Shown here one piece after another: positions 7,234 through 61,332 of a DNA stretch of 64,000 bases (position 1 is the stretch's first letter; each line of letters opens with the position of its first letter). The stretch comes from Squalus acanthias (lineage: Eukaryota), in NCBI GenBank assembly GCA_030390025.1, contig CM059432.1:66838001-66902000 (forward strand), in the 5' to 3' direction. The notes under the pieces were generated by a model, which worked only from the letters and a program-made list of their open reading frames with translations, was not told where the DNA came from and made no database searches. The translations under genes were made by a program, and so were the position numbers.

Positions 7234-8114
7234 GGGGAAGAAATTCAGTATCGCCCCATTTGGGGCGCAATTATCGGCCGGGCGCAAAGATTAGCGCCTG
7301 GTGCTAATTATCGCCACCGACTGCAAACTTGACTTTTATCGGCCCTGGAGGTGATTGGAGCGCTAAATCAGGCGCTTCACACCTGTCTTAAGGCGCAAAG
7401 GCCGAGGAGCGAGGCGCTACCTCAGAGCGCTGGCGAAGCTCGTGTGATGTCAGTCAGCAATGGAACACACACACAATGGCACGGGCCAGTTCTTAAAGGG
7501 GAGGGTTGATCTTGCTTTCCATCCACATCCTGCTCATTGCAGCCTTGAATCTCGGCCTGGAGAGACCTGCACATCAAATCTGCTGGAAAGAACAATGGAG
7601 AGTACCAGGCAAAGAGCTCAGCCCCCACAATCTCTTATAAATCGATACAAGAATGGCAAATCAAAATGAACCTGCAAAGTGCTGCTCAGTACCCAAAACT
7701 CCTTCACACAGCGTGGAATCTCTTTAGAAGTCTCTCTCTCTCTCAGAATGCGTGGTTCAAAAATGGCACCAACAATAAAAGGCAGGAAGCGGTTGCCTTT
7801 AAATAGCGCTCCCCCAGTCCCTTCATGACTGCAAAACGCTCCCCTCAACCTGTCGTAGCTAGCGTCAGGCGGTAAGGCAGGGGGCGCCACTCAATATCCG
7901 CTCCGGGGCGATACCGGGGCGTTGCACACTCGACTGACGTCACGATCTGCCGACGCAGGAGATCGTGGCGGTAGTGTTTAGCGCCGCCGCAAAATGTCTA
8001 GTTAATTTCGCGAGCAGCGCAAACATCGCCGCGCCTGGGCGCTAGATGTTTTGCGCCCCGTTAGCACCCTCTTAAGGCGCTAACGGGAGGCGCAACCAAC
8101 TGAATTTTTCCCCC
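7234..8114 (+). mobile_element. Harbinger-type MITE family A, copy 1 (~880 bp)
   Basis: TIRs GGGGAAGAAATTCAG / CTGAATTTTTCCCCC, 3-bp TSD CAT; close copies at 29061 and 60440. Confidence 0.9.
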
Positions 8115-23500: not shown

Positions 23501-24331
23501 ACTGGCCCTGAAAATGTGCAAGCCAGCAATCCCAGCACTTATGCTGATATCATGCCTTTAGGGAAACTCCACCACTGATCCTGATGAACTTTTCGGGATC
23601 AGAGGGAGGGTTCCTAATTTGCCGGCAAATGGACAGTGACTTTGCCAACAATAGCATATCTTGGGTGCCTGGCACATTTGAGGACATGGACAGTCCAGTG
23701 GAGGAGTACCAGGCCCTGGGGGGTGGGGCTGCTGGATCTGCCCTGGCAGAATTTTCTAAATGCTCGCTGTGACCCCCTTTGTAAAAGAGTCACCTTAAAA
23801 TCTGCAGAAAGAAAATCCCACCCTAGACCCCAGGTGTTCCCTACTTCTGCCCGTGTTCAGGAGGTATACCTGACCTGGCATATCACTCCCAACCATATAG
23901 CAGATCCCAACAAAGGCCAAATGCACAGGAGCACTGATGTTCAGAGTCCCCCCTCCCCCCGCCCAACTGCCTTCTCCCCCAACCCTACCCCTTATGCTGA
24001 TGGCTATATTTTGGGGGGACTGAGGCTCCACCCTAGCAGGCCATCTTGGGCTACTTTGGCATTAAGCCAAGATCCGACATATCCAAGCCTTGGCCTAATT
24101 TCTGGCTGTTCCAGCATAGTCTTGCCAAAGATATGGTAGCTCTGGATGCCTGCTCAAAATGCAAAGCCAGAAATGTCACACTTTCTGTAGTTTACACAGC
24201 ACTGGGTTACATTGTGCTCATTAGTGGCCACATCCTACAGGCAAAAACATTAGAGCTCAACAATGGAAGAAGGAACAGAAAATGCTGGAAATACTCAGCA
24301 GGTCAGGCAGCATCTGTGGAGAGAGAAACAG

Positions 24332-24368
24332 AGTTAACGTTTCAGGTCGATGACCCTTCGTCAGAACT
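24332..24368 (-). ncRNA. Minimal type I hammerhead ribozyme motif (Penelope)
   Basis: AGTT-CTGACGA-A-GGGTC atc GACCT-GAAACGTT-AACT: core boxes, stems I and II, palindromic stem III AACGTT. Confidence 0.75.
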
Positions 24369-25549
24369 GGAAAAAGCTGGAGATGGAACAGGTTTTTAAG
24401 CAAGTGCAGGGGCAGGGAAAGGGGGGAGGGGAGGAAAGAACAAAAGGGAAGGTCTGTGATAGGATGGAAGGCAGGAGAGATTAAGAGACAAAAGGGATGA
24501 TGGTGCAAGGCAAAAGGAGATGGTAATGGGACAAGTTAAGAAGCAAAAGATGACTCTAGATGAAGTGGAAATGGCACTGGCAGAATGAAAGACAGCTGTC
24601 ATGTGAGAGAGAGAGAAAAAAATGGAATAAAAAGGATAGGGGCAGAGGTTATGGTCTGAAATTGTTGAACTCGATGTTGAGTCCAGAAGGCTGTAAAATG
24701 CCTAATCGAAAGATGAAGTGCTGTTCCTTGAGCTTACGTTGAGCTTCATTGGAACAGTGTAAGAGGCCGAGGACGGTGAGGTCTGAATGGGAGTGGAGCG
24801 GAGAATTAAAGTGACAGGCGACCAGAAGCTCGGGGTCACCCTTACGGACTGAACGGAGGTGTTCCACAAAGCGGTCACCCAACCTGCGTTTGGTCTCCCC
24901 AATGTAGAGGAGACCACATCGTCAGCAGCGAATACAGTATACTAAATTGAAAGAAGTACAAGTAAATCACTGTTTCACCTGGAAGGAGTGTTTGGGGCCC
25001 TGGACAGTGGGAAGGGAGGAGGTTAAAGGGCATGTGTTGCATCTCCTGCGCTTGCACGGGAAGGTACCGGGCGAAGGGGAAGGGGTGTTGGGGGTGATAG
25101 AGGAGTGGACCAGGGTGTTGTGGAGGGAGTCATTCAGACCTCACTGTCCTCGGCCTCTTACACTGTTCCAATGAAGCTCAACGTAAGCTCGAGGAACAGC
25201 ACCTCATCTTTCAATTAGGCACTTTACAGTCTTCTGGACTCAACATAGAGTTCAACAATTTCAGACCATAACCTCTGCCCCTATCCTTTTTTTCCATTTT
25301 TTTTCTCTCTCTCACATGGCAGCTGTCGATCATTCTGCCATTGCCATTTACACTTCAGCTAGAGCCATCTTTTGTTTCTTAACTTGTCCCATTACCATCT
25401 CCTTTTGCCTTGCACCATCATCCCTTTTGTCTCTTAATCTCTCCTGCCTTCCATCCTATCACAGACCTTCCCTTTTGTTCTTTCCTCCCCTCCCCCCTTT
25501 CCCTGCCCCGACACTTGCTTAAAAACCTGTTCCATCTCCAGCTTTTTCC

Positions 25550-25586
25550 AGTTCTGATGAAGGGTCATCGACCTGAAACATTAACT
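25550..25586 (+). ncRNA. Minimal hammerhead ribozyme motif, stem III mutated
   Basis: AGTT-CTGATGA-A-GGGTC atc GACCT-GAAACATT-AACT. Confidence 0.65.
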
Positions 25587-26371
25587 CTGTTTCTCTCTCC
25601 ACAGACGCTGCCTGACCTACTGAGTATTTCCAGCATTTTCTGTTTTTATTTCAGATTTCCGGCATCCGCAGTATTTTGCTTTTGTGTTGTAATGGAAGAA
25701 GGAAATTCATCCTTACAATGACCAGATAAATGGAAAAAACTCAAAGCATCAAATGATTGTCTAGCTCTGGGCAGAAGGTGTTATTTTACTTGTGAATCAT
25801 GGGCTTCTTCAGGGAAAAGTTCAAGAAAATAATTCAAGAAGATAATCTGTCTTCAGAATAAGTCTACAACAGTGACAAGATAGGGTAATTGTGAAAAATA
25901 CTTTCTAGCAAGATGCTTGCTGAACTTGCTGAATTAACTGTATGAGTACAAGCAGAACAAAGTTTGTTTCATAATCCCAGGGTGCAGCAAGGACACAAAA
26001 ACTACCATTGAACGCTTTCAGGAAATCGCTGAAGCCATGAACTTTCAACAATTTTAAACACAAGTTCCTTCCTGTTTATTACAAAGTTCAGTCTAATACT
26101 TCAATGGGCATTAAGTTGTTCATAAAATGGTTGCATTCCAAATTTGTACCACTTAAATAGCAGGAGCTTCCTGCAAAAGTCATATCATAAACAATATTCC
26201 ACTGCAGCCTGCATGAGCTGCTTCATATTGGGACCATGAGGATTTTTTTCTTTCCCCATAACGGGATAGCACTGCTGCCTTCAATGCAGAATCTCAAGAG
26301 TGAGTATAAGTACCAGATGATGTCATCCCTCTTCACAGAGGTAGAAGAGAAAGCCTGATAGAGAGGAGAAT

Positions 26372-27135
26372 GGGGGAGAAATTCGGCATATTAGTGCCCC
26401 CAGTTGGCACCTGGCAGGGGCGCTAACATGCGCTCAGGCAGTAGCGCCGTGGTGGGGCAAACCCTGCGCCACACGGCAAATTTGCCGGTCCCGTAGCGCC
26501 GGTGATAACAGTTAGCACTTCGGCATCTTTCGCCATGCAGATCGTGATGTCAGCGAGTGTGCAATGCTCACTGGGCGCCCGATCTGCAAACTTCAGTAGC
26601 GGCCCCTGCCTTACTGCCTCGCGCCGACAGCGCCAGGGAGCGGAGGTGTGAACCAGCTGGCTGGCGGGGCGCTACTTAATGGGATGCGCCCCAGCTGTCA
26701 AGGAATTTCCGTTCCAAAGGTCAGTTATCAGTGGCAGAGAGCGCAGGATGTATCTGCAGCCAAATAAAGGCTGCTTAGTCCCCGGAGTGTTGCGGGCCGT
26801 CAAAGGACTTTGCATTTCATCCCACGGCATATCGCCGTTCTGCACTCCCCGAACCATTGGGGGCTGGTGTGCGGACTCCAATGACCCTCCCCTTTAATGG
26901 CTGGAAGGTGCCTTCCTCAATGCTCACTCCCGATTACACAACACCTGATATTTCTTATCACTTGGAGCCTAACGACACTCATCTATGGCATGAGCACCTG
27001 ATTTAGCACTCCCCTGCATTCTTTGAATACTGAGACTGAATTTAGTGGGCTGTGAGATTGATTAGCACCTGACGCTAAACTTCCAACTTCTCAAAAGTTA
27101 GCACCCTTTCCTGGGCACTACTGAATTTCGAGCCC
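26372..27135 (+). mobile_element. Harbinger-type MITE family B, copy 1
   Basis: TIRs GGGGGAGAAATTC / GAATTTCGAGCCC; full-length inverted copy at 27223-27995. Confidence 0.85.
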
Positions 27136-27222
27136 ATTAGTCTGACGGAATAATTCAAAACCATCAATGTGAAGGCTGCCATCTACTGGGCAGCATTTAC
27201 ATAGGACAATAGAATCGTATAT

Positions 27223-27995
27223 GGGCTAGAAATTCAGTAGCGCCCAGGAAGGGGTGCTAACTTTTGAGAAGTTGGAAGTTTAGCGCCAGACACTAATCAA
27301 TCTCGCTGCCTGCTAAATTCAGTCTCAGTGCTCAAAGAATGCAGGGGAGCGCTAAATCAGGTGCTAATGGCATAGGTGAGTGGCGTTAGGCTCCAAGCGA
27401 TAAGGAATATCAGGTGTTGTGTAATCGGGAGTGAGCATTGGCGAAGGCGCCTTCCAGCCATTAAAGGGGAGGGTCACTGGAGTCCGCACACCAACCCCCA
27501 GTGAATCGGGGAGTGCAGAACGGCGATATGCTGTGAGATGAAATGCAAAGTCCTTTGATGGCCCGCAACACTCCGGTGAGTAAGCAGCCTTTATTTGGCT
27601 GCAGATACATCCTGCACTCTCTGCCACTCATAACTGACCTTTGGAACGGAAGTTCCTTGACAGCTGGGGTGCATCCCTTTAAGTAGCGCCCTGCCAGCTG
27701 CCAGCCTACTGGTTCACGCCAATGCTCCCTGGCACTGTCGGCGCGAGGCGGTAAGGCAGGGGGCACTACTGAAGTTTGCAGATCAGGCTCCCAGCGAGCG
27801 TTGCACACTCGCTGACGTCACGATCTGCATGGCGAAAGGTGCCGAGACATTAATTGTTATCGCCGGAGCTACGGGGCTGGCGAATATGCCGTGTGGCACA
27901 GGATTCACCCTGCCACGGCGCTACTGCCTGAGCGCCCCATTAGCGCCCCCCGCCAGGCGCTAACTGGGGCCGCTAGCATGCCGAATTTCTATACC
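27223..27995 (-). mobile_element. Harbinger-type MITE family B, copy 2 (inverted relative to copy 1)
   Basis: TIRs GGGCTAGAAATTC / GAATTTCTATACC; reverse complement of 26372-27135 along its length. Confidence 0.85.
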
Positions 27996-28730
27996 ATAGA
28001 ATCATAGGCCGGAATTTTACCGTTGCCGTACATGCGGGTTTGGAAGCGGGTCGGCAGTAAAAATGTCAGAAATAGCCACCGCATCGGGAACCCTCCGTCA
28101 TCCCACCACCTCGCGTATTTAATTCGGGTGGCTTTGAAGGCGCGACATGGACCCGGTCGGCAGAGGCGAGTGACCTCATTGAAATCATTAAATGTTTGTT
28201 TGCAGACCCTTAAAAGTGATTTTTACACCAGCTTTTGAGCTTTACTGCAAGAGCATGGGATTCACGGAGGTCGGGTACCTCGCCTGTGAAGGGGAGGCGG
28301 AAGCTCAGTGGCCATTGGCGAGTTCATTCATTGACAGCTGGGAAAAGCACATAAATACTGTAACATTACACCTCATTACTTGCCTCATGGAAAGGCTCTT
28401 GCTCACTCCATTTTGTCCAGAGATTTGGGTGTCTGCTGCTTGCAGGTCATTTTTGAAACCTCGAAAGCCACTCTCACCACATTGCTACTCACTATCACAA
28501 CATTGAGGGACTGGCCCTCAGATCATAACTTTACTTGCCATCTACTACATCAGCATGGGTGCCGCTTATACTGTCTCACCATGGTCCTCAGAATCAGACC
28601 AATATGAGCTCCACCCCCATCAACACCAGCCAAAACACCAACAGCAGCAGCCACACCACCAGCAGCAGCAGCAGCAACCACAACAGCAGCCTTCTCCTCA
28701 ACGACCTGATGCTCCACAGGAGAGAGGGGG

Positions 28731-30292
28731 TGTAAGTTTTTATTTCAACTGGCATTAAATTGACAGAAAGACCAATTCTTTTGAAACAACTTGGAATATG
28801 TTTATTAAACACACAAACTCATGCACATTAAAACAATAGCCTACTGGTATTTATGGACTCTACTCGATTACAACACGTAAGGTAATGGGTTAGATTTACA
28901 CAGCCTGGTACTTCCCTGAGTTAAGCAATGCATGCGGCCTTTTTCCTTGCTTCTTGGTCTGTAGAGGGAGGGCTTCTTGTTCTTCCGCATGGTCGTCCAG
29001 AGCGAGAGAGAGAGCGAAAGAGCCTTTGGGTTCCTTGTTTTATATCTTTTTAAGTCCATTCAGTATCGCCCCATTTGGGGCGCAATTATCGGCCGGGCGC
29101 AAAGATTAGCGCCTGGCACTAATTATCGCCTCCGACTGCAAACTTGGCTTTTATCGCCCCTGGAGGTGATTGGAGCGCTAAATCAGGCGCTTCACACCTG
29201 TCTTAAGGCGCAAAGGCCGAGGAGCGAGGCGCTACCTCAGAGTGCTGGCGAAGCTCATGTAATGTCAGTTAGCAATGGAACAGAGACACAATGGCCCCGG
29301 CCAGTTCTTAAAGGGGAGGGTTGATCTTGCTCTCCATCCACATCCTGCTCATTGCAGCCTTGAATCTCGGCCTGGAGAGACCTGTACATCAAATCTGCTG
29401 GAAAGAACAATGGAGAGTACCAGGGAAAGAGCTCAGAGTGCAGCCCCCACAGTCTCTTCTAAATCGATACAAGGAAGGGCAAATCAAACTGAACCTGCAA
29501 AGTGCTGCTCAGTACCCAAAACTCCTTCACACAGCATTGAATCTCTCCAGAAGTCTCTCTCTCTCTCTCTCTCTCAGAATGCGTGGTGCAAAAATGTCAC
29601 CAACAAAAAAAGGCAGGAAGCGTTCGCCTTTAAATAGCGCTCCCCCAGTCCCTTCATGACTGCAAAACGCTCGCCTCAACCTGTCGTTGCTAGCGGCAGG
29701 CGGTAAGGCAGGGGGCGCCACTCAATATCTGCCTCGGGGCGATACCGGGGCGTTGCGCACTCGACTGACGTCACGATCTGCCGGCGCAGGGGATCGTGGA
29801 GGTAGTGTTTAGCACCGCCGCAAAATGTCTAGTTAATTTCGCGAGCGGCGCAAACATCGCCGCGCCCGGGCGCTAGTTGCTTCACGCCCCATTAGCGCCC
29901 TCTTCAGGCGCTAACAGGAGGCGCAACCAACTGAATTTTCCCCCCATTGTCTCTACTCTAAATTGCTAAGACCCCAGGATTGGGTCTTAGATTCATGGCT
30001 GTTCTTGATTGGCTTTCCTTTGAACATGTGTCTGTCTGCAGTGGCTGGTGCCATTTCTTGCTTAAGTTAATTGTTTGTTGACACCTTTTAGTTGCTCTTG
30101 AGTTTCGATGGTGAGTTTTGATGGTGTCTCTGTGGGGGGTTATCCTGTTATGCAGGTTTCCTTTGTTAAATTTTGCGTCGTTGCCTTACCCAGGGGAGAT
30201 CCATACAAATCAAATTTATCTTTATTACATACATCTTATATTAATAGTCTCGAGTCCATCACACATACAAAACATATCTTTTTATTCTTACA
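28731..30292 (-). repeat. 3' LTR (~680 bp net, interrupted by a MITE)
   Basis: Matches 37407-38672; minus-strand AATAAA at 28801-28806; PPT caaagcggggaatc immediately adjacent (30293-30306, minus). Confidence 0.95.
29061..29944 (+). mobile_element. MITE family A, copy 2, inserted in the 3' LTR
   Basis: Close copy of 7234-8114 with the left TIR clipped. The empty site aagtccattgtctc is visible in the 5' LTR at ~38318-38331. Confidence 0.9.
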
Positions 30293-30547
30293 GATTCCCC
30301 GCTTTGAGGGGGAAATATCCTTATTGACCCCTCATTTGGTTTATCTCCTCAGGGCTCGCATATGGTGGTTCAGTTTCCTAAGGAGTTTTCGCAGGTAGCA
30401 GATCATGATAATCCCCACCACTACAATTATGGCTTGTGCCAGTATCATAAGCATTGAGAGGGTTCTGAGCCAGGGGTGTTGTCCTACATTATACATTGTT
30501 TCCCACCATGGGCTGGCTCCTAGCTTTTGTATAGCTCTGCTGTTTAT

Positions 30548-31642
30548 CGACTGTCGATCGACAGTTCCGACGGGCCACTGCGAAAAACCGCATATACCTC
30601 CTCAGAAGACGAACACGGGACACAACCAACAGAGTACCCTACGTCGTCCAGTACTTCCCCGGAGCGGAGAAACTACGCCATGTTCTTCGCAGCCTTCAAC
30701 ATGTCATCGATGACGACGAACACCTTGCTAAGGCCATCCCCACGCCTCCACTACTCACCTTCAAGCAGCCGCCTAACCTCAAAAGTACCATCGTTCGCAG
30801 CAAATTACCCAGCTGTCAGGAGAACAGCGACCACGACACCACACAACCCTGCCACGGCAACCTCCGCAAGACATGCCAGATCATGGACACAGATACCGTC
30901 ATCACACGTGAGGACACTACCCACCAGGTACATGGTACATACTCATGTGACTCGGCCAACGTTGTCTACCTGATACGTTGCAATAAAGGATGCCCCAGAG
31001 CATGGTACATCGGCGAGACCATGCAGACACTGAGACAACGTATGAACGGACACCGCGCAACAATCGCCAGGCAGGATGGTTGCCTCCCAGTCGGGGAACA
31101 CCAGCAGTCAAGGGCATTCAGCCTCGGATCTGCGGGTTAGCGTTCTCCAAGGCGGCCTTCGGGATACACGACAATGCAAAATCATCGAGCAGAAACTGAT
31201 AGCCAAGTTCCACACTCATGAGGACGGCCTCAATCGGGATATCGGGTTCATGTCACGCTACAGAACGTGACTTGACATCGTTGCCTGTCTTTCCAGCTTT
31301 TTAAAAAAACAAACACAAGAAACAAACACAAGAAACAAACCCAAATGGAGAGGATATGCAGCCAGCAGGTGTTTTGACATGTTGGACCCCCTGGGACACA
31401 TCTCATTGTCTTGGCTGTGCTCTTAGTGTGTCTTTGATGTAGGGAAAGATTGAATCTCTGCATTTTCTCTGTGTTTATATTCTGTGAATTCTGGTAGATC
31501 CTCTCACAGTAACTCTACCTGAAGAAGGGGCAGGATAGCTCCGAAAGCTTGTAATTTTAAATAAATCTGTTGGACTATAACCTGGTGTTGTGCGACTTCT
31601 CGTTTTTGTCCACCCCAGTCCAACGCCGGCATCTCCGCATCA
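30548..31642 (+). mobile_element. 5'-truncated Penelope-like element (second family)
   Basis: GIY-YIG: NVVYLIRCNKGCPRAWYIGETMQTLRQRMNGHR...EQKLIAKFHTHEDGLNRD; 15-bp TSD agctctgctgtttat / agatctgctgtttat (30533-30547, 31643-31657); 16-bp palindrome at the 5' junction. Confidence 0.92.
31516..31553 (+). ncRNA. Minimal hammerhead ribozyme motif (Penelope)
   Basis: TAC-CTGAAGA-A-GGGGC aggata GCTCC-GAAAGCTT-GTA; palindromic stem III AAGCTT. Confidence 0.75.
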
Positions 31643-31720
31643 AGATCTGCTGTTTATGGCATTGTTCTGTGTCATCTGTATCCGTATCATGGTCCTGTGG
31701 GAAACAAGATCAGTGTAGTA

Positions 31721-34700
31721 TTTACTCTTTGGCAGTTTTTAACTGGTTAATATATCATTTCTTGTACTTAATGCCCTTTCCCCCCGGTAACTGAATCAAA
31801 TAAACCGCGGGGTTTTTTCGGTCTATAATCGTATGCGGTCCCCACCACCTGGGCTCAAAGGCAGGCTTCTTTTTCCCATAATTTGGAATCATTACGGTGT
31901 CCCCCACCTGATACTCAAAGGGACGTACTTTCTTGTCAAAGTACCTTACTTCCCCAATTTCGTGGCCACAAATCGATTCATCTGATCGGTGTGATCTACC
32001 AATTGTTCCAGCCACTTGGAACTACATGGTTCCATAGTCAAGGGGCTCATCCCCGTTAGTGTTAGCTGGCCTGGCGTTCTCATGAGTCTCCCAGTCATGG
32101 CCTGATATGGGGAGACTCCTGTTGTTTTATGAGGTGTGGACCTCATTGCCATTAAGCACATTGGCAGCATGTTAGCCCATTGAGTGGGGTGGTCCGCACA
32201 CAATTTTTTTAACATTAACTTGAGGGTCCTGTTCTCCCTTTTGACCCCTCCGGACGACTGGGGGTGGTGAGCAATATGGAGTTTGTGTTTTATCCCCAAC
32301 ATTTCCTGCAGGTGGGTAAAAATCTTACCGGTAAAGTGCGAACCTTGATCCACTTGTACCGGTACTCCCCACCCTCAAAACATATGATTTAATAGTGTTT
32401 TGGCTGCCGTGATTGCGGTGTTGGAGCAGCAGGGGAATGCTTCGATCCATTTAGTGAATTGATCCACCACCACTAGGGCATGCTGAAAATTGCCTTGTAC
32501 CTGTGGAAGTGGCCCAATGAAGTCTGTCTGGAGGTGAGTCCATGGCCCTTGAGGTGGGGGCGCGCTTTGAAGCAAGGCTCGGTTAGTGCATGTGGGAGGA
32601 TTGTGCTGCAGGCACGGTAGGCATCGTGCCACATATAGGTTGATTGTTTCCCTCATGGAAGGCCACCAAGCTGTGGATGCTACATTATAGAAGGTTACCA
32701 GGCCCGAATAGTGCCCTGCCGTGGGGTGGGAGTGAAAGAGGGAGAGCAGTTCCTGACCCACCTCTGGTGGAACACACACCACCGGCTTTCTTTTGAACAT
32801 CAGCAACTGCTCCGCTGAGTCAGGGGCAGTGGCTAGTATGGTATTGGGGGCCCAGGCTGTCGGTTGAGGAAGGGGTCTGCCTTCCTCGTGCCAGGTGCTT
32901 ACAATGGTGTATGGCCAGTATTGCTGCTGCAGGGATTTTAAATCGAGGTGATCTGTTGGGGAACCCTTGCCAACAGCATTGCAGGGCTCAACAACTATAT
33001 CCTCTATCTCCCCATTAATCGCAACGTCCTTGGCTGCTCTGTCTGCTCTGTAATTTCCCTCACTATGTGGACCCCCTTTTCTATGGGCTGCTACCTTTCC
33101 TATGAAGCAGGGCTGGGATCACTGTTTAAGGTATGACCAGAGCAGGCATAACCAGGGCCCATGGACCAGGGCCTTACCGTCTATTGTACGGTAGTCATTT
33201 CTGTGGTATAGGGGCAAGGAGAGCATGGTGTTTATAGCATAGTCACTATCAGACAAAATATTCACGGGTCTATCTGAGGTTTCTTTCACGGCAGTTAGAA
33301 GTGCGGCGATTTCTGCATATTGTGAGGACTGTCGGTTGCATCATCGCTGGATGGTTCTCTCTGGCAATACCACAGCATACCCAGTGTGGGGGGATCCCTC
33401 GATGTGATATGAGGACGCATCGATGTAGACATCTGGGCCTCTCTGTATGGGCTCTTTCTGCACAGGATGGGTCTCAAAGTTAATCAGGGGTAGTGGACAT
33501 TCATGCGGTTCCCCCTCATAAACCAGAAATTGTGGCAGCAATGTGGTTTGGAAATGATACCAATGTCTCTTTCCATAAATTCCAATGTCCATTTGCTGAG
33601 GTGCTGCGAGGAAACTAGCGAATCTCCAGGTTTCATCAGTAGGTTTAGAGGCGTTGTGTGCACTGTGAAGGATGGTCGCTTGTAGCCCAGAAATAAAGGT
33701 AAAATGATGTACCGCCCAGAAGACGGCCAGCAGGTGGCATTCGCACGCGGTATACGGTCTTTTCTGCCCCCTGCAGGATTGGAGACGCATATGCAATGGG
33801 CTGTAGTCGATCAGCTCGCGTTTGGCACAGAACTGCGGCGAGGCTTTGTTCTGTGGCCCCAACCTCCAAATGGAAGGGCTGCGTGGGATCCGGAGGAATC
33901 AGACATGCGGCCTGTATCACTGCAATTTTTAATTTGGCTGCGGACTGGGTGTGAGCATCAGTCCATGCCGGGTGTATGTCATCACCCTGCAGTTTTATCA
34001 AATCATACAGGGGCTTTGCGCACTCTGCAAAGCCTGGGATAAAGTTCCTTTGGTACCCCACCAAACCCAAGAATGATTGTAGGGCTGTTTTGGAAGTGGG
34101 TAATGGTAGTCGCTGTATTATCTCCACCTTGTGGGAGTCGGGGGACGTTCCCTCTGGAGAAATGGACAATCCCAGAAAGGTGACCCGTTCTTTTACCAAC
34201 TGAGCCTTACGGGGATTCACCTTTAGTCCCGCCTGAGCCAACAATGTCAACAGTTCATGCAAAAGGGACAGATGCTCCTCCATGTTATCGGTTGCCAGCA
34301 GTAGATCGTCTACGTACCGTAGCAAGCAGGTAGGGCAGGAAAAGTCTTTTAAAACTGCAGCCATTCTTTTGTGGAAGATTGTGGGGGCATTGTGGAACCC
34401 CTGAGGCAGGCATGTCCAAGTGTAGCTCTGGTCCTCAAATGTGAACGCAAATTTGTACTGGTCCTCCCTTTTAACAGGGATACTCCAGAATCCATTGGCG
34501 ATGTCGAGGGTCGAGAAGTACTTCGAACCAGCAGGAATTTGAGATAATATGGTGGGAGCTTCTCTTACTACCGGTGAGCAGGCTGGCGTTACAGAATTTA
34601 ACTTCCTGTAATCAATAGTCAGTCGCCAGCTGCTATCAGGCTTTTTAACTGGCCATGTGGGTGAATTGGTTGTGAAAGTGCCTGTCCTAACAACACCCTG

Positions 34701-35362
34701 CTCGACCAGGGATTTTATGGTGTCTCAGATGTAAGGGTGACTCTCCCTTGGGATGGGGTACTATTTAGTGAGTGAGTGGGGGGGGGTCCCTCAATAGACT
34801 CTTCACCCGCCATTTTTCCACAATCGTGCTTGTACGTGGCAAACACCGTTAGGTGTTCCTGAATTAGTTTTGCCACAGCTTCATTTTCGCTCCCCGGAGG
34901 GTCATACTCGGATGGCTTTTTAATAGCAAAAACAGAGTGAGCATCTGAAATTTCTATCACTTTTGCATTATTTCTCAATCCCATCCAAACACAGTCCCGG
35001 TTGTAATCTATTACCGCGCCATACTGATCCAACACATCAGTCCCTAAAATTCCCCTTCCGTCGGGGGTGGTCATCAGCATCGGCGCTGGGACCTTGCAGG
35101 TGAGGCCTCCCAACTGAAGTTCAGAGGTCTTCCCCGTATACGCGGTGGTTGTATCACCATTAAACCCTTTAAGGGCCATACAACCCTTGCCCGCTGCTGC
35201 ATGGCATTCAGGGTATGGGGTGTGGATGATGGTAACGGCTGAGCCAGTGTCTATAAGCATAATCTGCTGCCGGCTCCCTTTTAAGACAACAAGGACTACT
35301 GGTCTCCCGCTACCATCACATTGGAACTCCACTTCCGACCAATCTTTGGGGGTCAAACCCCC
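31721..35362 (-). pseudogene. pol: aspartic protease, RT, degenerate RNase H (tether), second RNase H, integrase; frameshifted
   Basis: LIDTGSAVTII; LPQGFHNAP / YVDDLL; FHLEVGAT...PIAYAS; YIDASS...SSQYAEIAA...ILSDSDY...KVAAH...GNYRADRAAK; HSHPTAGH..CLPC, TDFIGPLP, DQGSHF, WWGPH. Confidence 0.93.
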
Positions 35363-37280
35363 TCATAGGGTGGATCCTTGGAGGGGTCCTTCCAATGGGT
35401 GTGCATTGACGATAGGATTTTGCATTCCCAATGGGTGTGCATTGGCGATTGCGTGCACCGGTAAATGATTTTGCATCTCCCCCGTGACAATTTGGGCTTT
35501 CATGAGGGTTATCAACTGGTCCAATCGTTGATCCGTCCCAGAGGGCTTGGATTCATCCTTTTTTAGAAGGGTAACTAACTAAGCCAATTGTTGTTCCATC
35601 CCAGAGGGTTTGGGTTCGTCCCTCGGGAGGTATCTATGCGTTGCATCGTGGTCTGTATGGGTCTCCTGCAGTGTTTTGCTAGGTGACCTTCCTTCTTACA
35701 ATTAAAGCACTGTCCCCTAAAGGGGTAGTACCGAGATCCCTCCACCGCTGACACTGGTTTCTTTGCGGTGGGTGGTGACTTCACCTTTAACTGGTCTTTT
35801 ACCATCTCCCAGGCTCTTTGAACGTCAGTCTCTATATCTGTCCACTGATCGGTGGGCCTCACGGCTATACCCAGGGTAGTTTTAACTAAAGAGTGGAGTT
35901 GGGTCAGGAACATCATTTTGAATTGTTCCTGATTCTTTCCTGCTGCAGTATTTGCGGGTGCCTGGTTCTGGGTACATTCATAGATATCGTACAGGCGATT
36001 ACTGAAGGCTCTAGGGGTCTCATCTGGGCGCTGTTTGGTCTGACTAAGCATAGCCACTAAGTTTAAGTTCTGGATCCCTAAATGGTTTAGGACCTCGGTC
36101 ACGACTACATCAGTCGCTGTGCCACGCTGGAGGATCGCGTCTGGCAGATTATTCTTTAAAGAAGTGGAACAGGCCAAGAGGAGGACTCGTGTTAAGTCTC
36201 CCTCTTCTAACTCGGGGTGACCCGTCCTGAAATCTGCCCACCTCCTATTAACTACCAGTGGGTCATCCCCATCATTAATGGGCCCCAACTCGTGGCTACA
36301 CGCCGTGGCGTCAGCACCAGATATGGGCCGTGAGTCGGTATGGTTACTAGTGATGTGACCATGCACATTACGCCGTAAAGAGGTGGTCACTATTGCTATG
36401 GTTGGCCCTTGTGTCTCCAAGGTATCCCATCCTTCACCGCCCTCCTGGGGATTATACTGACTGCCTTTCTCTTCCCAATCTGTCTCCCCCTCGTCTCCTT
36501 CTGTTGTCTCTGTTATGGCTCCCCGTGTTACTGCGGATACTAGAGCCTGTTGCTGCCCTAATTTACTCTTTAGCTGCGTTATTTCTAGGTGTCACCAGGA
36601 GTGGTCTGCCTCCCTATGTGGCTTCTTAATTGCTTCCCTTAATGCCTCCCTAACGTCTTCTACTTCCTGCCCGAGCCCCAGGTTTTCCAATTTATATTTC
36701 TTGAGCTCTAACCTCGTTTCATTTGCTGCTGCGACTGCTGCTCCTGCATTTAAATTTAAGAGGCTTTGTTGCTGTAGCAATGAAGCTGCCTGCTCGGCTC
36801 CTCTTCCAATTGTCTGATACTGTGGCCTAATCGATCGATTTCTTGTCTCAAATGCTGGATTTCTCCCTCCTTTGACTGCCTAACAAGCTGGATGCTTTCT
36901 TCTTTCTGTTCTTTCATACTTTGAATCTCTTTTTCTTTTAGTTGAATCTCTTTGGCTTTTAGTTCTTTTAAATCTTGTATCTCTCCCTTTAAATCGCGAA
37001 TCTCTTTTGCATCCTGCCTCATTAATTCCTCATCTCTCCGAGCACAGTAATGTGCCCTGAATGCCAAAAGACCGTTTGCCTGTTTGGGCCTTAGCTTTTC
37101 CTCATCTACCCTCTCCTGGATAAATGCCACGAGCTCTCCAAAGGACGCATGTTGGCCCTTACAGATGCATCGTGCCCGTAACTCTTGTAAGTCCCTTATG
37201 GATACCTTTTCATATGTTTTTTCATGGTAGGCTACAGCTATGTCTTTTGCTGGCTTTTTGTATGCCCCCGATCCCTTCAT
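35363..37280 (-). pseudogene. gag: N-terminal coiled coil, capsid-like region, CCHC zinc knuckle; frameshifted
   Basis: ATG at 37280 (MKGSGAYKK), heptad-rich KEIRDLKGEIQDLKE..., TKQRPDETPRAFSNRL (MHR-like), CFNCKKEGHLAKHC. Confidence 0.88.
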
Positions 37281-37384: not shown

Positions 37385-37402
37385 ATCCCGGACGAGCCCC
37401 CA
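37385..37402 (-). other. Primer binding site for tRNA-Pro
   Basis: TGGGGGCTCGTCCGGGAT, the canonical 18-nt PBS-Pro (as in MLV), 4 nt downstream of the 5' LTR. Confidence 0.95.
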
Positions 37403-37652
37403 ATTTTGTAAGCTTTTTATTTCGACTGGCATTAAATTGACAGCAAGACCAATTCTTTTGAAACAATTTGGAATAAGTTTATTAAACACACAAACTCATG
37501 CACATCAAAACAATAGCCTACTGGTATTTATGGACTCTACTCGATTACAACACGTAAGGTAATGGGTTAGATTTACACAGACTGGTACTTCCCTGAGTTA
37601 AAAATGAGAAGTCGCACAACACCAGGTTATAGTCCAACAGATTTATTTAAAA

Positions 37653-37692
37653 TTACAAGCTTTCGGAGCTATTCTGCCCCTTCTTCAGGTAA
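37653..37692 (-). ncRNA. Minimal hammerhead ribozyme motif
   Basis: TTAC-CTGAAGA-A-GGGGC agaata GCTCC-GAAAGCTT-GTAA on the minus strand. Confidence 0.75.
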
Positions 37693-38040
37693 AGTTACAC
37701 TGAGTGAATCTACAAAAGTTCACAGAATATAAACACAGATACTGCAGAGATACAATCCCTGGAAGGAGCTTCAGGTGAAGAAGTTGAGGGCGGTGGTGAC
37801 TTTGATAGCCACTGGTAAGACATGTCCACCAGGTCCTCTGGACAGCAGGTCTTGTTCCAGCAAGCTACAAATGTCTGCGACGACCTGGCACAATAGTTTC
37901 AGCCTCCTTTGGCACTGCTGCTCAGTTATGTTGAGGAAGCTCACATTTGCGGGATCTCACAGTTGGCCTCCCACAGATTGTATCTCTGTAGTATCTGTGT
38001 TTATATTCTGTGAACTTTTGTAGATTCACTCAGTGTAACT

Positions 38041-38080
38041 TTACCTGAAGAAGGGGCAGGATAGCTCCGAAAGCTTGTAA
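38041..38080 (+). ncRNA. Minimal hammerhead ribozyme motif
   Basis: TTAC-CTGAAGA-A-GGGGC aggata GCTCC-GAAAGCTT-GTAA. Confidence 0.75.
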
Positions 38081-39913
38081 TTTTAAATAAATCTGTTGGA
38101 CTATAACCTGGTGTTGTGCGACTTCTCATTTTTGTCCACCCCAGTCCAACGCCGGCATCTCCGCATCATTCCCTGAGTTAAGCAATGCATGCGGCCTTTT
38201 TCCTTGCTTCTTGGTCTGGTCTGTAGAGGGAGGGCTTCTTGTTCTTCCGCGTGGTCGTCCAGAGAGAGAGAGAGAGAGAGCGAGAGAGCCTTTGGGTTCC
38301 TTGTTTTATATCTTTTTAAGTCCATTGTCTCTACTCTAAATTGCTAAGACCCCATGATTGGGTCTTAGATTCATGGCAGTTCTTGATTGGCTTTCCTTTG
38401 AACATGTGTCTGTCTGCAGTGGCTGGTGCCATTTCTTGCTTCAGTTAATTGTTTGTTGACACCTTTTAGTGGCTCTTGAGCTTCGATGGTGAGTTTCGAT
38501 GGTGTCTCTGTGGTGGGTTATCCTGTTATGCAGGTTTCCTTCGTTAAGTTTTGCACCGTTGCCTTACCTAGGGGAGATCCATACACATCAAATTTATCTT
38601 TATTACATACATCATATATTAATAGACTCGAGTCCATCACACATACAAAACATATTTTTTTTTATTCTTACAGGGGGCACCACAGGGCTGCAGCACATTG
38701 GAGACGATACCCCCAACATAGGGTATACAGGCAGAGGATGAGCTTCCTCAACATAACTGAGCAGCAGTGCCAAAGGAGGCTGAGACTATTGTGCCAGGTC
38801 GTCGCAGACATTTGTAGCTTGCTGGAACAAGACCTGCTGTCCAGAGGACCTGGTGGACATGTCTTACCAGTGGCTATCAAAGTCGCCACCGCCCTCAACT
38901 TCTTCACCTGAAGCTCCTTCCAGGGATCTGCAGCAGACATTTGCGGGATCTCACAGTCAGCCTCCCACAGATGCCTCACACAGGTCACCGATGCCATGTT
39001 TCACAAGTCAGCCAAATAGATCAACTTTGCCACTGAAGAGGCCAGTGTTATTGAGTAGATGCTGCAAGGTGGGAAAGAAGAGAACTTTGAGTGAGAGTGA
39101 TGGAATGAGTGTAAGGAATGGATGGGCTACATCTGTGGAGGGTGACTATGAGGGAATGGGGTGACAATGCCAAATGGCCTCCTTCTGTGGTGTTACTTGC
39201 TATGATTGCATTAGGATGAGGTTGAGTGTCAGGGGTGGTTAGTCAGATGGGGATGTGAGTATGTACATAGAGAGAGAGGGATGGGTGGACTTGGGAGGTG
39301 TGCAGGAGTAGGCTTGGGAAGGCAGAGTGATGGGGATGTGATAACAGGCACATCAGGATGAAGGTGAGTGTGGCTTTGCACTCACCTTTGCTGACCTCAT
39401 CAGATCATTGAATCTCTTCCTGCACTTGATCCAGGTCCTCCTCATAACCTCCCTGCTGCTGACCTCCTCTGCTATTTCCAGCCAGGCCCTTTTGGTCTCT
39501 TGGCGAGGTGTCTTACGCCTATCTGCTGGGAAGAGGACCTCCCTGCATGCTCTTACTGCTTAACCAGAATATGCAGTGAGACATCTGTAAAGCAGGGTGT
39601 AGCCAACTGCCTTTGGGTATTCATATTTTTCACTTTGCACAATAACTCCAACCTTTCCAATGTTCATTCCACACTCCTCTTCCAACCTTCAAATGAGTTG
39701 TGTGCAAGGCTGTTTTAATTAAGGGTGCTGGAAATTAGTCATCGATGATGTCATCAGACCCATCTGATAGGGCTGGGAAATGCACATGGCTGGTTTAATT
39801 TGGGCCATTGCGCTAAAGTCGCTCTGAAAAGCGTGCTGATCAAGACATCGCATTCCTGACCCGCTACGCAGCCCGCACGCACCCATCCCGACTCAGATGT
39901 AAAAATTCTGGCC

Positions 39914-59990: not shown

Positions 59991-60439
59991 TGAGAAAAAT
60001 ATATTTTGTAGGCTTTTCAGTGGAATAGGCCTTTTAGATTCAAAGTTATTCTTGTCAGCAGTTTGTGTAACTGTCATTGTACACCTATGTCAGAAGCCAT
60101 TTTTGTCTAAGTGGTTATCTTATGTTTATGGGATCAAATGGGAATCGTAGGTTGACTGTTTCTGCCTATTTTGGAATGTGTGGGAGTTGTTAGGATGGTA
60201 CTTGGCTTGGGGAAACATTGAAATCTATTGACATACAGGCACAAAAGCAGACTCAAGTTCCCATAATATAATTTAATATGAGTGATTTAATGTATATAAG
60301 GCAGACATAAAGCATTGAATATTTCACATCGAAGTGGAATGGGACACGCTCAGGTGTTACCACAAGGCCATTCGAGATCGACCACCTCAAAATCTTATAG
60401 ATGTTAGGAGTTTGTATCTCTTTTTTTTTACAATATTAT

Positions 60440-61332
60440 GGGGGAAAACTTCAGTTGGTTGCGCCTCCCGTTAGCGCCTTAAGAGGGCGCTAATGGGGCG
60501 CAAAGCAACTAGCACCCGGGCGCGGCGATGTTTGCGCTGCTCGTGAAATTGACTAGACATTTTGCGGTGGTGCTAAACACTACCACCACGATCTCCTGCG
60601 CCGGCAGATCGTGACGTCAGTCGAGTGCGCAACGCCCCGGTAGTGCCCCGGAGTGGATATTGAGTGGCGCCTCCTGCCTTACCGCCTGCCGCTAGCAACG
60701 ACCGGTTGAGGGGAGCATTTTTCAGTCAGGAAGGGACTGGGGGAGCACTATTGAAAGGTGACCGCTTCCTGCCTTTTTTTGTTGGTGACATTTTTGAACC
60801 ACGCATTCTGAGAGAGAGAGAGAGGAACTTCTGGAGAGATTCAACGCTGTGTGAAAGAGTTTTGGGTACTGAGCAGCACTTTGCAGGTGCATTTTGATTT
60901 GCCCTTCCTTGTATCGATTTAGAAGAGACTGTGGGGTTTGCACTCTGAGCTCTTTCCCTGGTTGTCTCTATTGTTCTTTCTAGCAGATTTGATGTACAGG
61001 TCTCTCCAGGCCGAGATTCAAGGCTGCAATGAGCAGGATGTGGATGGAAAGCAAGATCAACCCTCCCCTTTAAGAACTGGCCAGCGCCATTGTGTCTGTG
61101 TTCCATTACTGACTGACATCACACGAGCTTCGCCAGCGCTCTGAGTTAGCGCCTCGCTCCTCGGCCTTTGCGCCTTAAGACAGATGTGTAGCGCCTGATT
61201 TAGTGCTCCAATCACCTCCAGGGGCGATAAAAGTCAAGTTTGCAGTCGGAGGCGATAATTAGCGCCAGGCGCTAATCTTTGCGCCCGGCCGATAATTGCG
61301 CCCCAAACGGGGCGATACTGAATTTTTCCCCC
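60440..61332 (-). mobile_element. MITE family A, copy 3
   Basis: Reverse complement of 7234-8114; TIRs GGGGGAAAACTTCAG / CTGAATTTTTCCCCC; TSD TAT. Confidence 0.9.

Follow-up and report, generated by a model that had tools for sequence, protein, structure and literature searches.

Loss of env followed by intragenomic spread is a described pattern (PMC10536682, accessible part of the text). It includes the IAP elements and recKoRV, known as "superspreaders" (Magiorkinis 2012, as cited in that part of PMC10536682), in which env is mostly lost, gag-pol and the LTRs are kept, and the deleted form is far commoner. Env-less LTR elements can also use sORF2-type proteins; in insects, according to the available sections of the source, these are 63-107 aa long, with one membrane helix and at least 3 K/R in the 15 residues after it, and the myristoylation motif MGxxxS/T is present in four of six Drosophila sORF2 proteins and missing in the other two (10.1101/2025.03.14.642691). 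Lokiretroviruses, as described in the portion of PMC7947760 at hand, carry gag-pol-env with an F-like Env, an R-x-K-R site and a coiled-coil stretch ahead of the capsid region; none of three chondrichthyan genomes was positive for them in that portion of the report.

Here we compare with these systems a provirus from a 64,000-nucleotide stretch of the Squalus acanthias genome (hereafter the window), in which a 79-codon ORF stands in the place of env. Our analysis indicates that this ORF is a remnant of the family's own env. In our view, the env-deleted form very probably outgrew its parent within germ-line cells or with a helper Env, the in-frame stub being carried along as a passenger.

The provirus and its interrupted short frame

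The provirus spans positions 38672 to 28731 on the minus strand of the window and has gag, pro-pol, a primer-binding site, a purine tract and LTRs, flanked by a 5-nt target-site duplication (38673-38677 and 28726-28730). Its features are the following:

37407..38672, minus strand: 5' LTR, with TG start and CA end, broken up by later insertions
37385..37402, minus strand: primer-binding site
35575..37280, minus strand: gag, in two frames, with a coiled-coil-like N-terminal part, then a capsid region and a CCHC knuckle
31722..35362, minus strand: pro-pol (protease, RT, RNase H region, integrase), with stops and frameshifts
31695..31714, minus strand: putative env splice-acceptor-like tract; the same tract lies ahead of full env in sibling copies
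31646..31690, minus strand: 5' piece of the short ORF (env codons 1-3, deletion junction, first env-tail codons)
31680..31681, minus strand: deletion junction, with 2-nt microhomology in a 7-of-10 imperfect repeat; about 1.8 kb of env absent
30548..31645, plus strand: Penelope-like insertion with a GIY-YIG fragment and a 12-nt target-site duplication, later than the provirus
30341..30547, minus strand: 3' piece of the short ORF, the env C-terminal codons (Trp-rich membrane-proximal stretch, helix, basic tail, stop)
about 30460-30398, minus strand: membrane helix of the short ORF
30295..30305, minus strand: polypurine tract
28731..30292, minus strand: 3' LTR, with an unrelated insertion at about 29058-29947

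The primer-binding site resembles what we take to be the tRNA-Pro type. Alignment of the 5' and 3' LTRs shows 25 differences in 704 columns. Pfam scores for gag were E = 0.0015 for zf-CCHC and only E = 0.05-0.1 for BAR_4/Golgin. The start of gag (35575-37280, minus strand) is a long Lys/Glu-rich coiled-coil-like stretch ahead of the capsid region, with only weak Pfam matches.

The first-pass annotation had proposed that removal of a Penelope insert restores a 79-aa minus-strand ORF, and the same open frame is indeed found in uninterrupted copies. The insert that breaks the frame is present on the opposite strand, as described, but its end lies at 31645 and not at 31642: the exact target-site duplication is 12 nt long (31657-31646 and 30547-30536), and therefore the insert is bounded by 30548 and 31645. 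Its GIY-YIG match (PF01541, E = 4e-4) is under the curated cut-off. The insert is specific to the window copy at this place, being absent from the other copies and from the contigs of runs X1, X2 and X9.

On the minus strand, the letters at 31696-31690 place the ATG (31690) 4 nt past the acceptor-like AG (31696-31695), and the stop (30343-30341) is about 35 nt short of the purine tract (30295-30305), both as the annotation had stated. Among the 29 other best-scoring loci, which were ranked by DNA identity and are thus biased to intact copies, the two ORF pieces adjoin without the insert in 26, with the 79-codon frame open in 16 of these and broken by stops or frameshifts in 10; the ORF is therefore real, and a family state. 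Where the acceptor tract was found (60 of 67 loci examined), the AG is kept in 56 loci and the ATG in 57. In the naturally open copy P0001, on which helix and charge were computed, residues 41-61 form the single hydrophobic segment (mean Kyte-Doolittle 2.77), and 5 K/R lie among the 15 residues that follow it, in agreement with the one membrane helix and polybasic tail first reported. The distribution of charge suggests that the stub would adopt an N-out topology.

No splice joint at 31694 was present among the 15 of 86 joints listed for the contig sets of four out of 14 runs, and these same sets cover the whole element and its inserts as DNA would be covered. Contigs of runs X2 and X9 span the deletion junction, while the joint of run X1 is too short for it.

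Several other repeats are found in and around the provirus. An unrelated GC-rich repeat of about 890 nt is present in three copies that are 92-95% alike (7234-8114, 29058-29947 and 60438-61332 of the window), one of them within the 3' LTR. Long inverted repeat pairs (86-99%) with short spacing are located at 24274-25644, 26430-27935 and 37600-38927, and the nested inserts of the 5' LTR among them have ends in common with the Penelope-like insert. A CAG/CAA-rich repeat, poly-Gln-like on the plus strand, lies just outside the provirus (28600-28690).

Internal deletion of env and the copies of the family

The short ORF corresponds to env codons 1-3 fused in frame to the last 76 codons, with the signal peptide and ectodomain gone. 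Env-bearing siblings are 95-99% identical to the short form over the common 3' stretch and have about 1.8 kb of extra env, the full gene having a signal-peptide-like start and about 680 codons (about 2040 nt in the reference copy). Comparison of the two forms indicates that env lost about 1.8 kb in one internal deletion; the stub has no signal peptide because the deletion removed it, and has a Trp-rich stretch, a helix and a basic tail because the deletion left them. The junction shows 2-nt microhomology inside a 7-of-10 imperfect repeat common to the env start and the env tail. A junction on a short imperfect repeat is as expected of template switching, and the deletion may have occurred in this way during reverse transcription. 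Both copies of the repeat have one reading frame in common, and therefore env codons 1-3 run into the last 76.

The annotation had headlined a FAST-like fusogen replacing Env and had offered, as its other reading, the in-frame stub of an env without its ectodomain. Full-span env in copies of the same family supports the stub: the env interior is whole in 5 of 68 family loci, partial in 10 and absent in 53, and in the five a long env lies between the same acceptor and the same TM segment, the very arrangement that had been named as evidence against the headline. The ORF is thus a deletion product of the family's own env, and the proposed replacement of Env by a fusogen is not supported. Every env-spanning copy (5 of 5) has a stop 17-239 codons after the ATG. 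A genome search with env-interior DNA returned 21 matches, of which five are full-length at 89-100% (one being the query's own locus), three are partial at 90-92%, and the remainder belong to sister families.

In a pol-anchored sample of 30 loci, 24 have the short junction, five have other deletions and one has full env, which answers the question of whether the short ORF is the commonest state of the family: it is. Pol is often kept along with it: of 16 short-form loci checked, 12 match a 2.4-kb stretch of pol located no more than about 3.4 kb upstream. The best reading of this census is that the env-deleted form out-amplified its env-bearing parent, with the stub as a passenger.

The age of the two forms is consistent with this reading. 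Over the shared codons, short and env-bearing copies (38 and 5) differ by pS = 0.044 and pN = 0.040, values no different from those among short copies themselves, and a pol tree of 59 of the 67 copies is star-like, with the two forms mixed and a median end branch of 0.023. Equal divergence and a star-like mixed tree together show that short and env-bearing copies arose in one burst, so that the sequences give the stub no separate history. A three-row basal group in the pol tree was rejected as an artefact of poorly overlapping rows.

In mechanistic terms, the deleted form retained gag-pol together with its LTRs, acceptor and purine tract, and the tree and census indicate that it became the commonest form in the same burst as its env-bearing parents. 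It most likely spread by intracellular copying in the germ line or with Env borrowed from intact siblings. If translated from a spliced env RNA, the putative 79-aa product would amount to an Env tail anchored in the membrane, without a function of its own. The family resembles IAP and recKoRV in that env is mostly lost, gag-pol and LTRs are kept and the deleted form is far commoner; unlike theirs, its deletion is in frame and leaves a 79-codon frame that still has its acceptor, ATG, anchor and tail, and its parent Env is F-type. It would be one more case of env loss and amplification, with the parent and deletion forms caught side by side. We found no description of a membrane-anchored or in-frame env stub in ERVs in a literature search that covered subscription journals thinly.

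Eight deletion forms were seen in all, and in each of them the 3' end lies ahead of the membrane helix, between nt 1669 and 1892 of the roughly 2040-nt env, a clustering that is partly ascertainment, since most of the eight were found with a query from the membrane segment. The frame was determined for five of them, of which three are in frame and two are out (chance about 0.2 by hand calculation); one out-of-frame form recurs at 4 loci, each on a different contig. The final 150-370 nt of env were probably spared because of a recombination hot spot or of RNA signals close to the purine tract. Such a signal or hot spot within 250 nt would explain both the clustering of the deletions and an LTR-borne family (described below) without any protein.

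Besides the common junction, the seven other independent env deletions among these eight, three with a near-identical 5' end, have 3' ends within about 220 nt of each other (L052-L054, L057, L058, L066, L067, L069, L070, L085 and L109); loci L064 and L088 carry the common short-form junction. A short-form provirus lacking the membrane helix (L089, L113, L116, L120 and about 10 unplaced-contig matches) multiplied together with its flank, apparently within a segmental or tandem repeat. The helix-less copies were considered as proof that the stub is dispensable, and this was dropped, as the four examined have a common flank and appear to be segmental duplicates of a single insertion.

Relatives and fold of the parent Env

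A protein search of the genome with P0001 gave 150 scored matches out of 6427 candidates, and those at 35-58% cover query residues 3/4-75, many of them in long open frames. Twenty of these matches, picked partly for their long frames, are env C-termini with an R-x-K-R site, a hydrophobic peptide, a heptad region and a cysteine-rich body. Of 60 sister-family loci, 29 have an integrase match, and in these 1544-3219 nt separate integrase from the segment, with no short interval among them. Scanning 1.84 billion representatives gave four matches and no short stand-alone relative: three are proteins of 438-739 aa from Pelodytes (a frog), Chiloscyllium (a shark) and Xenopus, matched at their C-terminus, and the fourth is a repeat artefact.

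A word-index homolog search with the sister Env gave no match, a PDB sequence search with Env gave coiled-coil noise only, and no Ig domain was matched by Pfam on the first 120 env codons or on P0003 and P0002. The sister-family Env has an R-x-K-R cleavage motif and matches PF00523 only at E = 0.04-0.09. Its structural model has a mean pLDDT of 37.5, and the fold matches listed for it all belong to foamy Env or to paramyxo/pneumovirus F, with a best E of 1e-7. From this low-confidence model we tentatively assign the Env of this lineage to the F-type class I fusion proteins. Many sister families (L031-L050, L121-L160; P0002, P0003, P0005) have Envs of 700-780 codons with F-like models and a non-lokiretroviral RT; relatives are found in a bamboo shark, two frogs and, by RT, coelacanth.

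The window family has the gag-pol-env order, F-like Env, R-x-K-R site and coiled-coil stretch ahead of the capsid region of lokiretroviruses, and its gag start is reminiscent of their smc-like segment. However, its RT falls in another clade, and the Env tail of Loki-Xtr, as given in the supplement of PMC7947760 that was at hand, is dissimilar by eye, which is how all published Loki sequences were compared. The window RT shares 46-63% identity with its counterparts in Xenopus, frog and coelacanth elements and 36% with proteins that bear the Loki RT motif. In a quick tree of 66 RTs it groups with Xenopus (98) and the frog/coelacanth elements, apart from two Loki-motif proteins. A lokiretrovirus identity was therefore rejected: judged by its RT clade, and despite its F-type Env, the element is an F-type-Env retrovirus of another lineage. 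This lineage is little described.

Foamy virus Env and paramyxo/pneumovirus F (PMC11468914, accessible excerpt) resemble the sister Env in modelled fold, with F proteins as the best matches and foamy Env at rank 35, and the solved RTs nearest to the window RT are those of foamy Pol. Unlike foamy viruses, the family has a short signal-peptide-like Env start instead of a long leader, a CCHC knuckle in gag, and an RT outside the foamy clade. Lokiretroviruses are further marked by a tether plus second RNase H and by an smc-like ORF; in the window an RT_RNaseH match follows the RT, the nearest Pol relatives have both domains, and the coiled coil upstream matches weakly.

The anchored segment: likeness, selection and recurrence

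The stub shows the structural features used to recognize sORF2 proteins, with 79 aa, one helix (41-61), 5 K/R in the 15 residues after it and amphipathic stretches on both sides. It is nevertheless highly improbable that the ORF took the place of Env as a fusogen or cell-to-cell transmission protein of the FAST/sORF2 kind. Three of four ordinary full-length Env tails of the lineage pass the polybasic test and all have the same layout, so these criteria do not discriminate, and the FAST likeness of the stub, as read from its residues, is inherited from the Env tail. The N-myristoylation motif is absent from the stub, as it is from two of the six sORF2 proteins (10.1101/2025.03.14.642691, available sections). 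The ORF is also a direct deletion product of the family env with no lineage-specific change, has no short homolog in the databases searched, and coexists with env-bearing copies of the same age. It does not behave as a gene of its own conserved across elements, being an env deletion product with no short form in the 29 sister loci. Compared with Drosophila MDG1-group sORF2 and reovirus FAST proteins (10.1101/2025.03.14.642691, in the part available), the stub is likewise small and single-pass, has a basic patch following its helix, and belongs to an LTR element with no full env; it differs from them in deriving from the element's own env tail, in lacking the myristoylation motif and in showing no sign of independent conservation. 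Ordinary Env tails that pass such structural criteria call for caution in FAST/sORF2 screens.

A second explanation is that the stub was selected as an anchored piece of the fusion machine, which could obstruct six-helix bundle formation in the F-type Envs of its siblings, as superinfection interference, or maintain a contact between tail and Gag. We consider this improbable, even though the part kept fits it: it comprises the last ectodomain helix (heptad repeat B or the next), the membrane-proximal stretch, the anchor and the tail. In the low-confidence Env model it corresponds to the last helices and anchor (707-718, 721-730 and 733-782), in a fold that appears to match paramyxo/pneumovirus F, and the corresponding segment of F-type proteins lies packed against the central coiled coil (PMC11468914, accessible excerpt). 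Also in its favor, the deletion ends cluster upstream of this segment, the dominant form is in frame, and most copies keep the acceptor and ATG. Against this, the out-of-frame form multiplied too (4 loci), and an RNA signal located in these 250 nt would account for the clustering equally well.

The substitution pattern also counts, weakly, against selection on the stub, which is undiverged from the env tail with pN/pS near 1. In 39 uninterrupted short copies pN/pS is 0.91 (0.60-1.58), or 0.73 on shared alleles, a test with too little power in this star-like family to tell neutrality from weak selection; the integrase of the same 39 copies gives 0.80, or 0.66 on shared alleles, with an interval that overlaps that of the stub. 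Between the stub codons and the sister family, pN/pS is 0.30 (0.12-0.52), as expected for env.

The segment recurs outside the window family. In a second repeat family, a homologous env segment with the same Met position stands behind an ATG about 28 nt into an LTR-like unit, a pattern with 47 matches genome-wide and 0 for the control, which favors selection on an anchored fragment. The order of the unit (L126:4032-4900; L142:650-970, minus strand; L161-L190) is about 28 nt, ATG, the last ~80 sister-env codons, purine tract and an older LTR. In the 30 LTR-borne loci that were read, most flanks are unrelated, and some copies follow a purine-tract-like stretch and env-like sequence. The copies have two donor env types, and L169 has a longer env piece at the same place.

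The LTR-borne copies have pN/pS of 1.30 (0.91-1.84, n=11) and 1.09 (0.79-1.50, n=10), and 2 of 21 are open over their full length. This counts against selection on the fragment, weakly, as it reflects mostly post-insertion decay; the copies appear to decay neutrally. We also considered a conserved internal acceptor and start Met within env, and rejected the idea: an AG closes the preceding codon in 34 of 61 loci, and conservation of the Met (0.92) does not exceed that of adjacent residues, so that neither a specially kept start nor a conserved AG ahead of it supports an anchored fragment.

A broader proposal is that the last 76-80 Env codons are a reusable anchored module, put behind its own start by two unrelated rearrangements, both of which multiplied because the module is useful, either as a fusion inhibitor of sibling Envs or as a path to a sORF2/FAST-like transmission protein in a vertebrate. 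This we regard as doubtful, and passenger spread of an env-deleted form remains our preferred reading. If the stub were under selection, it would either show where small membrane proteins in env-less elements can come from or represent a naturally occurring anchored inhibitor of fusion, and having two independent forms would make the idea testable. The LTR-borne segment resembles, in its placement, a 3'-LTR ORF position.
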